A stretch of DNA of 64,000 bases from Anaerolineales bacterium (GCA_034430895.1 DAOUDW010000079.1:9240-73239); one strand, 5' to 3'. Numbered from the stretch's first letter, positions 17,300 through 20,802 are shown. Notes: generated from the letters alone by a model not told the origin. A program made the numbers and translations.

Positions 17300-17328
17300 T
17301 TGACTAAAAAAAGAAATGCGAATATAGT
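17300..17328 (+). promoter_or_regulatory. Sigma70-type promoter of the methyltransferase-corrinoid operon
   Basis: TTGACT-17 bp-TATAGT. Confidence 0.75.
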
Positions 17329-17333
17329 CTAAA

Positions 17334-17351
17334 AGACTGACTGGTCAGTCT
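17334..17351. promoter_or_regulatory. TetR-type operator AGACTGAC-TG-GTCAGTCT
   Basis: Perfect 8-bp arms just after the -10; 15-bp core repeated at 20769-20783. Confidence 0.8.
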
Positions 17352-17377
17352 ATTATCCATTACCAAGGGGATGCACA

Positions 17378-19000
17378 ATGGCAACCGTCTTTATGAAGTG
17401 GTTGGAGACTCAGCCTGAGAAGTACGATCGCGGCATTCAGTTGCTTACCTTGGGAAAGCTTCACAAGTTGCAGGATAGACTTGTCGGGCTTCTTGTCCGG
17501 CCAGGCATGCGTGTGCTTGAGATTGGCTGCGGGACTGGTGCGCTCACCGTTGCAATTGCGGCGAAGGGTGCCGAGGTTGTGGGGATCGATCTAGATTCAG
17601 GGATGCTGGCACAAGCGGAGAATCGACTGGCTGCTTCGGGATTGTATAAAAACGTCGTTCTGGAACATGTGGATGCCGCTTTAATCGCCGAGCGTTTTAA
17701 GCCAAACAGTTTCGACCTCATTGTCAGCAGCCTGGCTTTCAGTGAAATGTCCCGGGATACACAAGCATATGTGCTTTCGGCTTGTCATTCCTTGCTGGCA
17801 CCCGGCGGGCGATTGGCTATCTTAGATGAGATGTCGCCGCACGGATGGACCGCCCGCTTCGCGGTTGCCATGGTACACATCCCCTTGCGTTTCATCACTT
17901 GGATGCTGACACGCACGACGACAAATCCATTGCGCGATTTTCAAGGCACACTCGAGCGCGCTGGCTTCCGCGCAGATGTCATCGAACGAACCTTGCTGGG
18001 TTCGTTATGCTTATTCCTGGCGGAACCCAAACTCGATGACGGGTCTCAACCATTGCCGGTTTCGTTCAAAGGCCGCCTTCGCTATCGGATGAGTTTGCGA
18101 ACCCTGTTGGTCGATCTCTGGGCGGTTTTCTTTCGCATCATACCGCCTTATCCAAAGATGCAGCCCGGCTTGTATTCCATTGGCCAACCGACTCCTGACT
18201 CGCCCGTTTTGGTAACCGGAAATTTCGAACTCACTGTCCGGCGCCTGGTGAAAGCCATCGATCATCATTTGCATGTCTGGCTGCTGGTGGTTGACTCGAG
18301 CGGCATCAATGTCTGGTGTGCGGCCGGTGGTGGTTTTCTTACCGCCGAGCGTATTATCGGCGCTTTAAGCACCAGCCGGTTGGACGAAGTGGTTAACCAT
18401 CGAGCCTTGATTCTGCCGCAGCTCTGTGCCAACGGTGTGGATGGTTGGCTGATCCGTAAACAGACGAAATGGGGTGTGCATTGGGGGCCCGTCCGCGCTG
18501 CTGATCTACCAGCCTATATCCAGGCCGGGAGGAAAAAAACCGAGGACATGCGCCAGGTACGGTTTCCGTTGCGTGATCGGTTGGAGATGTTAGCAGCCAC
18601 GATGGGTTTTTATGCGATGCTGATTCTCATCCCGGTGGCGTTGCTCTGGCCATCCAGTTTCTGGCCTTTACTCGCCGCTATGCTTGGATTGTCGCTGTTT
18701 TACGCCATCACGCTTCCCTGGCTGCCTGGTATTGATGGTCTGGCGAAGAGTCTGCCGTTGGGGTTGATTGCACTGGCGGGGATGCTGCTCTATTCGTGGT
18801 TCGTACATTCCACGGCATTGGCGGACATTTTCAATCGCGTTGTAGGATTAACCGGGCTCTCGGTTTTCGTTGGTGCCGAATTACAAGGAATGTCCCCACG
18901 CATGCGTGGTGAACAGGCGAACTGGGGTTGGGAGGCGATCATCGCTGTATTATTAGGGCTGGCGTATTGGCTGATCCCTCGTTTGATGGGTTGGAGGTAG
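17378..19000 (+). CDS. Class I SAM methyltransferase fused to an HgcA-like corrinoid-binding and transmembrane domain
   Basis: aa 1-220: VLEIGCGTG, GIDLD, FDLIVSSLAFSE, LAPGGRL. aa 250-400: PGLYSIG.P.PDSPVLVTGNF, WLLVVDSSGINVWCAAGGG, RL..VV.HRALILPQL, WGPVRAADLP. Then about 5 TM helices. Confidence 0.88.
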   Translation: MATVFMKWLETQPEKYDRGIQLLTLGKLHKLQDRLVGLLVRPGMRVLEIGCGTGALTVAIAAKGAEVVGIDLDSGMLAQAENRLAASGLYKNVVLEHVDAALIAERFKPNSFDLIVSSLAFSEMSRDTQAYVLSACHSLLAPGGRLAILDEMSPHGWTARFAVAMVHIPLRFITWMLTRTTTNPLRDFQGTLERAGFRADVIERTLLGSLCLFLAEPKLDDGSQPLPVSFKGRLRYRMSLRTLLVDLWAVFFRIIPPYPKMQPGLYSIGQPTPDSPVLVTGNFELTVRRLVKAIDHHLHVWLLVVDSSGINVWCAAGGGFLTAERIIGALSTSRLDEVVNHRALILPQLCANGVDGWLIRKQTKWGVHWGPVRAADLPAYIQAGRKKTEDMRQVRFPLRDRLEMLAATMGFYAMLILIPVALLWPSSFWPLLAAMLGLSLFYAITLPWLPGIDGLAKSLPLGLIALAGMLLYSWFVHSTALADIFNRVVGLTGLSVFVGAELQGMSPRMRGEQANWGWEAIIAVLLGLAYWLIPRLMGWR

Positions 19001-19004
19001 GCGT

Positions 19005-19268
19005 ATGGCTGAATCCCCTTCCATGCTTGAGATGCTCACAGAACACATCGATCTGGCGCGTCGCTTGCGTGTACTCCAAATTCATTTTTACCCCGAACGC
19101 TGCAAAGGCGTCTGGCAGTGCTATGAAGTTTGTCCGGTTGGATGTTGGCGGCCGGATTATGAGAAGCGAGTTGTTGCCTTTGAACATGGGGAACGCTGTA
19201 TCGCCTGCGGCGCTTGCGTGCTGCAGTGTCCGGAAGGGGCGATCGAATTGAAGGTGGCCGATGATTGA
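19005..19268 (+). CDS. Dicluster-type ferredoxin in the HgcB position (non-canonical)
   Basis: CKGVWQCYEVCP and CIACGACVLQCP; no C-terminal Cys tail. Confidence 0.85.
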   Translation: MAESPSMLEMLTEHIDLARRLRVLQIHFYPERCKGVWQCYEVCPVGCWRPDYEKRVVAFEHGERCIACGACVLQCPEGAIELKVADD

Positions 19269-19746
19269 AAAGGTACATGAGGTAAAACCTCCACGCGGCC
19301 TGAGGCGCATTTTCTTCCGTTTCCCCATCTTACTGTATCGAGCGGGATTGGGTTGGCTGCTGGGTGAGCGTGCGTTGATGATGACTCACACAGGGCGTGT
19401 CAGCGGTCTTGCGCGGCGTGTGGTGCTGGAAGTGATGCGCCACGATAGGGATACGGATACCTATATTGTGGCTTCCGGATGGGGAGAGAAGTCGGATTGG
19501 TTTCAGAACATCAGTAAAACACCGCGGGTAGATGTGACCGTCGGACGCCGGCGCTTCACTGCGTTGGCGCAGCGCTTGCCGCTCGACGAAGCGGAAGAGG
19601 AAGTGCTGGATTATGCCCGACGACATCCGACGGCCATCCGGCAATTGGGTCGTTTGATTGGTTACCAGCTGGAACATACGCCAGAGGGATATCTCGCCCT
19701 GGTAGACGTGATGCCGATTGTAGCCATCCGTCCGGTTGAGCAGTAG
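19261..19746 (+). CDS. Deazaflavin (F420)-dependent nitroreductase-family oxidoreductase (DDN-like)
   Basis: THTGRVSGLAR, VASGWGEKSDWFQNI..TPRV.V.VG; overlaps the ferredoxin stop by 8 nt. Confidence 0.85.
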   Translation: MIEKVHEVKPPRGLRRIFFRFPILLYRAGLGWLLGERALMMTHTGRVSGLARRVVLEVMRHDRDTDTYIVASGWGEKSDWFQNISKTPRVDVTVGRRRFTALAQRLPLDEAEEEVLDYARRHPTAIRQLGRLIGYQLEHTPEGYLALVDVMPIVAIRPVEQ

Positions 19747-19791
19747 TTGGAGCCGACAGGTTTTTCAATACGATTTTAAGGGGTTGATTCA

Positions 19792-20709
19792 ATGAGAGCA
19801 CTAGTAATGAGTGGGGCGGCGAATTACGGTACCCTGCAAGCTGGCGCGTTGGATCCGATTTTCGCCTCCGGTTTTCGGCCCGAAATGGTGGTGGGAACAT
19901 CTGCGGGCGCGTTGAACGCCATTTATATGGCATACGATCCCAGCCCGGGCGGGGTCGCTCGTATGCAGGATCTTTGGCGGGCGGCCGGGCCCAAGGAAGT
20001 GGGCATACCTTCAGCGATTGGCGTTGTTCGCAGATTGGTCCGGCAAGAGGACAGCCTGGTACCGAGCGATGCGCTGGCGGCATTTCTGGGTCAGCATTTG
20101 CCACAGGAAGTGGACACCTTCGGGCAGCTGCGCGACAGCGCTGGGGTTCCGGCTTACGCTGTAGCTGTGAATATCGAAACAGCCGAATTGCGTGTCTTCG
20201 GTGATCTCGACGATGATCGCATTATCGACGGCGCCATGACGAGTACGGCTGTACCCCCCTATTTCCCTCCGTGGAAGGTTGGTGATCAGCGCTATTTGGA
20301 TGGTGGTGTATATTCCAAGCTTCCCATCCGAGTGGCCATCGAACGAGGCGCTACACAGATTCTTGCGCTGGATGTATCTCACGCCATGGGTTCGAAGGAG
20401 ACGGCCAAAGGAATTCTGGGCATGTCCTCCTATGCAGTCTCACTGATGGTGGAAGCACAAGCTGCCCGTGAAATCGCTTGGGCGAAAACATCTGGCGCTT
20501 CGCTGCGTGTGATTCGACTGCCTGCGCCAACGGATATCGCCTTTTGGGATTACACACAGGCCGATCGCTTGATCGAAATGGGGAGGACGTGTGCCGAACA
20601 GCAGCTCGATGCGGAACCGCTGCGGTTTACCCAAAAACCCTGGATCCAGCTGCGAAGTTGGTTCGCCAGCAAAATTGTAAAGCCGGATCGCATTTCGCCT
20701 TTCGATTGA
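19792..20709 (+). CDS. Patatin-like phospholipase
   Basis: LVMSGAANYG glycine-rich loop, GTSAG nucleophile elbow, YLDGG. Confidence 0.88.
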   Translation: MRALVMSGAANYGTLQAGALDPIFASGFRPEMVVGTSAGALNAIYMAYDPSPGGVARMQDLWRAAGPKEVGIPSAIGVVRRLVRQEDSLVPSDALAAFLGQHLPQEVDTFGQLRDSAGVPAYAVAVNIETAELRVFGDLDDDRIIDGAMTSTAVPPYFPPWKVGDQRYLDGGVYSKLPIRVAIERGATQILALDVSHAMGSKETAKGILGMSSYAVSLMVEAQAAREIAWAKTSGASLRVIRLPAPTDIAFWDYTQADRLIEMGRTCAEQQLDAEPLRFTQKPWIQLRSWFASKIVKPDRISPFD

Positions 20710-20732
20710 GGTTGCATGGAAACATGCCGCGC

Positions 20733-20783
20733 TTGACAAAGCGCCTGGTTCTCTGTATAGTCGTAGCTGACTGACTGGTCAGT
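20733..20783 (+). promoter_or_regulatory. Promoter TTGACA-17-TATAGT plus operator copy GACTGACTGGTCAGT upstream of tetR
   Basis: -35 at 20733-20738, -10 at 20756-20761, operator at 20769-20783. Confidence 0.8.
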
Positions 20784-20802
20784 ATAATATCTTGAGGTGG
20801 GT

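Follow-up and report, generated by a model that had tools for sequence, protein, structure and literature searches.

In classical efflux systems such as TetR/tetA, QacR/qacA, TtgR/ttgABC and AcrR/acrAB, a homodimeric helix-turn-helix (HTH) repressor of the TetR family occupies a palindrome that overlaps the promoter, and is released from it by a ligand. A single TetR protein can also govern several transcription units that each carry a copy of the same palindrome, as is the case for KstR and FadR. Here we analyzed a stretch of 64,000 nt from an Anaerolineales bacterium (GCA_034430895.1 DAOUDW010000079.1:9240-73239), referred to in its entirety as the window, in which two identical palindromes, O1 and O2, accompany the promoters of two adjacent units: an enzyme operon that starts with a gene for a methyltransferase fused to a corrinoid protein, and a unit composed of a tetR gene (20803-21405) and exporter genes. 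Comparison with related loci indicates that O1 and O2 are probably operators of a TetR subfamily of Anaerolineales/Chloroflexota, and that the resident TetR probably co-regulates both units.

The locus departs from the classical efflux systems in that the identity of its TetR to their regulators is low and mostly restricted to the HTH, and in that its exporter is of the ABC-2 type rather than a member of the major facilitator (MFS) or resistance-nodulation-division (RND) families. Unlike those of KstR and FadR, the regulon seen here is local, comprising two adjacent units within 64 kb of genome. By architecture, the closest characterized system is cecR-ybhGFSR of E. coli, an operon headed and negatively autoregulated by the TetR-family repressor CecR (YbiH), which senses small molecules (PMC12998191). 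In both systems, a tetR heads an operon, autorepressed in E. coli and probably so in the window, that encodes an HlyD-type protein and an ABC exporter with two ABC-2 permeases, and the transporter proteins of the window match the same broad family (RbbA/DrrA/ABC-2). However, the similarity of the regulators is marginal (NF008587, 19.7 bits compared to a cut-off of 365), operator, gene order and phylum differ, and the regulon described here contains enzyme genes as well as two promoter/operator copies.

The enzyme operon in turn can be compared to hgcAB, using HgcAB features described previously (bioRxiv 10.1101/2022.10.17.512643; PMC10087281). In both cases, a dicluster ferredoxin is encoded beside a corrinoid protein that has a membrane domain and a Cys in its cap helix, and a transcription factor is linked to the pair. 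In contrast to HgcAB, the corrinoid protein of the window carries an N-terminal fusion to CpaM, an S-adenosylmethionine (SAM) methyltransferase, and the regulator is a TetR, whereas in P. mercurii canonical hgcAB is under the control of an ArsR-like protein (bioRxiv 10.1101/2022.10.17.512643). The family that best matches the corrinoid and ferredoxin parts is that of the fused HgcAB-like proteins, e.g., of Pyrococcus furiosus (NF043039); here, however, the ferredoxin has a gene of its own and the corrinoid part is fused to the CpaM methyltransferase instead. Carriers of fused HgcAB-like proteins examined so far showed no mercury methylation in culture (PMC10087281).

Two identical palindromes downstream of two promoters

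The 15-mer GACTGACTGGTCAGT is present in exactly two copies in the window, at 17335-17349 and 20769-20783, and a search of both strands revealed no third exact copy. Both are preceded by sigma-70-like promoters on the plus strand. P1 (17300-17328) consists of TTGACT (17300-17305), a 17-nt spacer and TATAGT (17323-17328), with a sigma-70-like match of 10/12, and P2 (20733-20761) of TTGACA (20733-20738), a spacer of the same length and TATAGT (20756-20761), with a match of 11/12. They represent the top two sigma-70-like matches within 16-28 kb of the window, and the architecture of P1 is also present in relatives. From the TATAGT to the 15-mer, the gap is 6 nt at P1 and 7 nt at P2. Thus, we could reproduce the positions of the two copies, their distance to TATAGT, the 17 bp between TATAGT and TTGAC(T/A) and the lack of a further exact copy, all of which had been reported in a preliminary description made from the sequence of the window.

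O1 extends over 17334-17351 (AGACTGAC-TG-GTCAGTCT) with the core ACTGACT|GGTCAGT at 17336-17349, and its right flank CTATTAT (17350-17356) agrees with the consensus flank of the operator family (see below) at 7/7 positions. The same core forms O2 at 20770-20783, where the flanks fit this consensus less well than those of O1. Both sites lie in intergenic DNA in equal register to two strong promoters and span approximately +1 to +15 of these, which is the position of a repressor.

The repetition of a 15-mer as such is unremarkable in the window, which has 31 exact repeated 15-mers at about 13 places compared to about four in shuffled sequences, and we therefore dropped exact-repeat statistics as evidence. 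The significance of the 15-mer comes instead from its palindromic symmetry, the identical promoter register and its conservation in other genomes. A near copy of the core with one core mismatch, CCTGACAAGTCAGT, is found at 32958-32971, where by our own probability estimate about 0.5 such copies are expected. This near copy is coding, located at the very end of a permease gene of another ABC-2 operon, within its last codons, and overlapping the Shine-Dalgarno sequence of the next permease, and lacks a promoter; we rejected it as a third operator and regard it as a probable chance match.

Conservation of the operator in related loci

Conservation was analyzed in two sets of related loci, 160 in all and covering 1.6 Mb. 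Set 1 comprises 80 loci (1.19 Mb) of species-representative genomes, each with a gene for a relative of the fusion protein, and set 2 comprises 80 new metagenome loci (0.40 Mb) chosen by the peptide pattern SKG[ATL]LYWY alone. The best genome match to the window shows 89% protein identity. Across the 160 loci, the core ACYGACY|RGTCRGT holds the same place just 3′ of a TTGACA-17-TATAnT promoter. We found 37 exact core matches in set 1 compared to 0.28 expected and 88 in set 2 compared to 0.1 expected, so that both sets together contain 125 matches versus about 0.4; the window itself has two in 64 kb versus 0.015. Most of the exact matches have a promoter directly upstream.

The site is linked to the presence of this TetR. 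Among the 75 set 2 loci with at least 80 nt of sequence upstream of tetR, 72 have an exact ACYGACNNGTCRGT no more than 120 nt upstream of the gene, and the site typically ends at a distance of 15-26 nt from the start codon. The other three loci have a cytochrome P450 gene, or what remains of one, immediately 5′ of tetR; the operator is found beyond it in L093 and L098, and in L097 no operator was found within the 778 nt available. The remnant in L098 lies at about 765-945, between operator and tetR. For the cluster-linked tetR genes of set 1, our tally is approximately 32 out of 35 with a site upstream. In contrast, the palindrome was detected in none of 44 control regions upstream of CpaM-HgcA genes without this TetR, and it is absent from the roughly 45 set 1 loci that have the fusion gene and hgcB without tetR, the deazaflavin-dependent nitroreductase gene (ddn) and the ABC genes.

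An unbiased enumeration of 5+5 inverted repeats returned solely this palindrome family upstream of tetR. The TetR encoded in L033, which is 29% identical and has a different recognition helix, is accompanied by a different palindrome. An anchored alignment of 40 distinct sites from relatives showed that TTGACA, TATAnT and the palindrome are kept while spacers, leaders and coding starts diverge, a pattern that reads as a classical phylogenetic footprint. In L074 (about 5700-5890), a truncated tetR remnant is found together with a degenerate site, indicating that loss of tetR correlates with decay of the site.

Symmetry of the operator

Comparison of 112 distinct sites showed that the central dinucleotide, which was left unconstrained in the search, is always a pyrimidine followed by a purine (YR; TG in 45, CA in 39, CG in 23 and TA in 5 sites), which makes the operator a 14-bp palindrome, ACYGACY|RGTCRGT. 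Within this core, G4/A5/C6 and G9/T10/C11 are invariant. The register GACTG-2-CAGTC, which was the top match of the enumeration, was discarded as a by-product, since it needs a TG centre and is lost with CG or CA centres. In the 112 sites, the bases at positions 3 and 12 change independently of each other (T/A 55, C/A 45, T/G 9 and C/G 3; Fisher p = 0.23). On both sides, the core is bordered by mirrored AT-rich flanks, ATAATAG ... yTATTAT, which contribute 0.5-1 bit per position.

Core and flanks form a quasi-palindrome of about 28 bp, and the operator measures about 20-28 bp in all. This quasi-palindrome could reflect a longer footprint or two dimers; with its mirrored arrangement over about 28 bp it resembles IR1 of QacR, which binds two dimers. 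In relatives, the two sites within one genome differ at the degenerate positions, and the identity of O1 and O2 appears to be incidental.

The TetR protein

The protein encoded at 20803-21405 (plus strand) has a TetR-type HTH (PF00440, 65.6 bits with a cut-off of 24) and an all-helical ligand-binding and dimerization domain (TetR_C_6, 43.8 bits with a cut-off of 27). A GAGGTG Shine-Dalgarno sequence lies 5 nt before its ATG at 20803, and the promoter of the gene is overlapped by a palindromic operator. Among solved structures, YfiR, TtgR and FadR match over the full length, with AcrR also among the best matches (E = 3e-15 for TtgR and 5e-11 for AcrR). Aligned orthologues have a median identity of 61% in the HTH compared to 31% in the ligand domain, and their recognition helix GLSKGALYWY(F/Y), which reads GLSKGALYWYF in the window, is almost invariant. 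The window TetR (N-terminus MAPRPDVSE) represents a type A paralogue, which shares 43-54% identity with exporter-linked TetRs and only 36-44% with the type B TetRs at the start of the operons of sister clades.

The window contains a second, unrelated TetR-ABC-2 operon on the minus strand (31835-35589), with a tetR at 34981-35589, an ATPase gene at 34016-34984 and permease genes at 32953-34146 and 31835-32965. Its promoter, TTGACA-16-TATAAT, is followed by an imperfect palindrome, ATGTTAG-N6-CTTACAT (about 35605-35650). This second TetR was rejected as a binder of O1 and O2, as its HTH is 29% identical to that of the TetR at 20803 and it has another helix and another palindrome.

Regulon content and gene order

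Downstream of P1, four genes are encoded on the plus strand: the CpaM-HgcA-like fusion (17378-19000), an HgcB-like dicluster ferredoxin (19005-19268), a deazaflavin (F420H2)-dependent nitroreductase/quinone reductase family protein (DDN, 19261-19746; TIGR00026, 75.7 bits with a cut-off of 46.35, and PF04075) and a patatin-like phospholipase (19792-20709), the ferredoxin and the phospholipase being identified by profile matches. P2 is followed on the same strand by tetR and by a gene for a small membrane protein of 92 aa (21475-21753), which matched no Pfam family and is conserved in its position adjoining the ABC genes on their 5′ side. Next comes an ABC-2 exporter of the RbbA/DrrA/YbhFSR type (21761-25945, profile matches), consisting of ATPase A1 (21761-22723), permease P1 (22683-23858), permease P2 (23862-24992) and ATPase A2 (24908-25945). 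The final gene of the unit encodes an HlyD-family membrane-fusion protein (26007-27428), which also follows A2 in relatives, so that one operon contains two ABC ATPases, two ABC-2 permeases and an HlyD-family protein. An intrinsic-terminator-like hairpin of 12 pairs followed by a T run (27459-27487, plus strand) likely marks the end of the tetR-exporter transcript. No terminator-like site was found between the stop codon of the patatin gene and promoter P2, and read-through from promoter P1 into the exporter unit is therefore possible.

About 25 of the set 1 loci have a single operon in which the promoter and one AC[C/T]GACnnGTCAGT site are followed by tetR, cpaM/hgcA, hgcB, ddn, in part a patatin gene, the small-protein gene, four ABC genes and the HlyD gene, with a DsbA-like gene on the opposite strand. 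Across all 80 set 1 loci, conserved neighbors of the fusion gene are members of this cluster only. Based on these tetR-headed operons, co-regulation of methyltransferase, ferredoxin, reductase, lipase and exporter would be the ancestral state. In set 1, a tetR located after the patatin gene in combination with two sites is limited to the window and the four relatives closest to it (81-89% identity), and in a neighbor-joining tree of the fusion proteins this window clade is nested in a larger clade whose other members are all tetR-first.

The fusion protein closest to those of the window clade (66%) is encoded in the metagenome contig L087, where both types of regulator are found in one cluster (1814-6603) with the order operator-tetR_B-cpaM/hgcA-hgcB-ddn-patatin-operator-tetR_A-small protein-ABC, and the two TetRs are about 42% identical to each other. 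If both of them bind both sites in L087, derepression might need both ligands. The lineage of the window has probably lost tetR_B, which would make O1 an orphan operator. Such a loss is the simplest reading of the window arrangement, with sister lineages having instead lost tetR_A along with its promoter.

The context that prevails in set 2 is operator-tetR-small membrane protein-ABC-2 exporter-HlyD without a corrinoid gene; ddn is frequent, and patatin, cytochrome P450, stand-alone SAM methyltransferase or the CpaM-HgcA/HgcB pair are found in subsets of the loci. This suggests that the exporter is the core regulon and that the enzymes are variable cargo, and tetR, the small membrane protein, the ABC-2 exporter and the HlyD-type protein would constitute the core regulon of the TetR family. 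Cargo under the same operator includes a cytochrome P450 (348 bits; L093 315-1709) and a stand-alone UbiE-like SAM methyltransferase (L098 1715-2356). In eight exporter-only loci, a second operator is located between tetR and the small-protein/ABC genes, indicating that two operators per locus are a recurrent design.

Model of regulation and alternative explanations

In our model, a dimer of the TetR, or a pair of dimers, would occupy the site and block RNA polymerase. Repression at P1 would silence the cpaM-hgcA-like, hgcB-like, ddn and patatin genes, and repression at P2 would silence tetR itself, the small membrane protein, the ABC-2 exporter and the HlyD protein. Binding of a small and probably hydrophobic ligand in the C-terminal domain would release the TetR and switch on both units. 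Through O2, tetR would be autoregulated, and after the loss of tetR_B the enzyme operon would depend on TetR_A, the repressor of the exporter. We infer binding of the TetR to O1 and O2, blocked initiation, release by a ligand and the lack of another regulator on O1 from the sequence comparisons. The preliminary description had interpreted the palindrome as a TetR site and had placed methyltransferase, ferredoxin, reductase, lipase and exporter under the TetR at 20803. Both proposals agree with the comparative evidence: the palindrome behaves as the associated site of this TetR family (72/75 tetR genes versus 0/44 controls), and the listed genes share one tetR-headed operon with a single operator in the roughly 25 related genomes. 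Control of both units by this TetR is supported in the same way.

Several observations weigh against this model. The promoter model presumes sigma-70-like recognition in Chloroflexota. L065 (about 4270-4290) has the variant ACTGAC-CGTCCG-GTCAGT with six instead of two central bases, upstream of a tetR with the normal helix, and L037 retains a good operator despite a truncated adjacent tetR (about 1010-1290). The tetR of L002 (13413-14012) has an in-frame stop at codon 86, for which an error in the metagenome-assembled genome is possible. Moreover, TetRs of type A and type B share just about 30% identity in their ligand domains, so that one ligand may not apply across the family.

This divergence of the ligand domains also favors the best-surviving alternative, in which O1 is mainly or additionally under a type B TetR encoded elsewhere, and the two units could answer different ligands or need both. 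In line with this, L087 has both paralogues beside their own operators, and as the window represents 64 kb of the genome, a tetR_B located elsewhere could act on O1. We nevertheless consider this alternative unlikely. There is no type B tetR in the window, where the only other TetR (34981-35589) has a different helix and palindrome, and the genomes or contigs with the split arrangement, five to eight in number, all lack tetR_B at the locus. Furthermore, the recognition helix is common to types A and B, so that TetR_A of the window should bind O1 regardless.

It is considerably less probable that the TetR is a dual regulator that acts as an activator at one of the promoters, with the two units responding oppositely. 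There is a precedent in CecR, which represses its own operon and activates the divergent rhlE (PMC12998191). However, both sites of the window have the same position relative to −10 and +1 and the same orientation, and in relatives one such site serves the entire gene set.

As the palindrome coincides with the predicted 5′ ends of the two transcripts and could form a stem of 5-6 bp, it might alternatively be an mRNA hairpin that affects stability or translation rather than a DNA site. This is very improbable, as the predicted folds are no better than those of shuffled sequences (z-scores of −0.7 and −0.8) and the sites match no Rfam family. In addition, a C.A mismatch would interrupt the stem in about 40% of the sites, and the lack of covariation between positions 3 and 12 points to symmetric recognition by a protein instead of a structure in RNA or a cruciform. 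A dimeric DNA-binding protein is also in keeping with the mirrored flanks and the YR centre, and we rejected an RNA hairpin or riboswitch on these grounds.

That the 15-mer was repeated by chance or duplicated locally in recent time and has no regulatory role, as the excess of repeated 15-mers in the window might suggest, has a negligible probability, given that it is palindromic, lies in the same register to two promoters and is conserved in more than 110 distinct sites, which come from genomes with proteins 55-60% identical to those of the window and have different flanking spacers.

Relationship of the corrinoid enzyme to HgcA and HgcB

In the fusion protein, a class I SAM methyltransferase of the CpaM family (residues ~4-216) is followed by an HgcA-like domain for corrinoid binding and, at the C-terminus, by a membrane domain. 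The CpaM part reached 268.9 bits with NF043040 (cut-off 180), carries the SAM motif VLEIGCGTG and is fused in frame to the HgcA-like domain. The latter stayed below the HgcA cut-off (NF040863, 191.5 bits compared to 275). The cap-helix motif of HgcA is N(V/I)WC(A/S)(A/G/S)GK with a conserved Cys (PMC10087281). In the window, the cap helix reads NVWCAAGG; the Cys is retained, the final K is replaced by G, and the sequence thus does not conform to the HgcA motif. This G form is found in 66 of 78 family members.

Likewise, the ferredoxin scored 44.7 bits with the HgcB model NF040864 (cut-off 99) and ends with ...AIELKVADD, lacking the C-terminal Cys pair. In HgcB, this vicinal pair was reportedly found to be important by mutagenesis. 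The HgcAB_like model NF043039 (cut-off 285) is covered by the two genes in a split manner, with 267.4 bits at positions 2-284 and 65.6 bits at 288-349, and the corrinoid/ferredoxin pair appears to be homologous to the HgcAB-like fusion in a different arrangement. Our literature search found no paper on CpaM, the CpaM-HgcA-like fusion or the operator sequence. Since proteins of this type retain the Cys of the cap helix and their bit scores clearly exceed the loose thresholds applied in metagenome surveys of hgcA, such surveys could miscount them as mercury methylators of the Chloroflexi.

Neighboring genes

Divergent from P1, the minus strand encodes a DsbA-like thioredoxin-fold (lipo)protein (16517-17287; Pfam Thioredoxin_4/DSBA), which is the divergent neighbor of the cluster in 24 loci. 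Its start codon is probably the ATG at 17263-17261 rather than 17287. The extended −10 box TGCTATAAT (17278-17270) lies only 6 nt before this ATG, so that the mRNA would be leaderless, and the motif CAT-N6-ATTATAGCA is conserved in L037 and L074. We rejected the DsbA-like gene as a member of the regulon: direct control is unlikely, since its own extended −10 box is approximately 70 bp away from O1.

Further upstream, a response-regulator-GGDEF-EAL protein is encoded at 14634-16427, and two large FGE-sulfatase/BNR-repeat proteins follow past the terminator (27645-31762). The window also harbors one tRNA gene (53404-53477). A 29-nt exact repeat (47116-47144 and 47977-48005, 861 nt apart), a 17-nt exact repeat (45226-45242 and 48199-48215) and a short tandem/palindromic repeat (41417-41450) probably correspond to repeated protein modules.

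Implications for the HgcA-like protein family

Our analysis defines the operator ACYGACY|RGTCRGT and the recognition helix GLSKGALYWY for a widespread, previously undescribed TetR subfamily. Relatives of the TetR were found in 443 metagenome stretches, and relatives of the enzyme in 121 matched stretches of species-representative genomes. The loci also appear to document the redundancy of two repressor paralogues with the same specificity, which would have been settled differently in sister lineages.

An exporter core combined with variable enzymes has the pattern of a small-molecule modify-and-export module. Besides the corrinoid enzyme, the same cargo slot is occupied by cytochrome P450, stand-alone SAM methyltransferase, DDN reductase and patatin. 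As a tentative possibility, the CpaM-HgcA-like and HgcB-like proteins may be one of several interchangeable modifying enzymes in such a TetR-gated module, in which SAM would load the corrinoid via CpaM and the substrate would be the hydrophobic or electrophilic inducer of the TetR rather than Hg(II). If this is true, the ligand of the TetR would point to the native chemistry of the HgcA protein family.

In its regulatory logic, the system is a textbook switch of an ordinary type, and the value of the finding lies in the handle that it provides on the CpaM-HgcA-like enzyme family. The TetR regulon is the sole conserved genomic context that we found for this family in the 80 loci of set 1, which makes the ligand of the repressor an experimentally reachable clue to the function of these paralogues of the mercury methylase.

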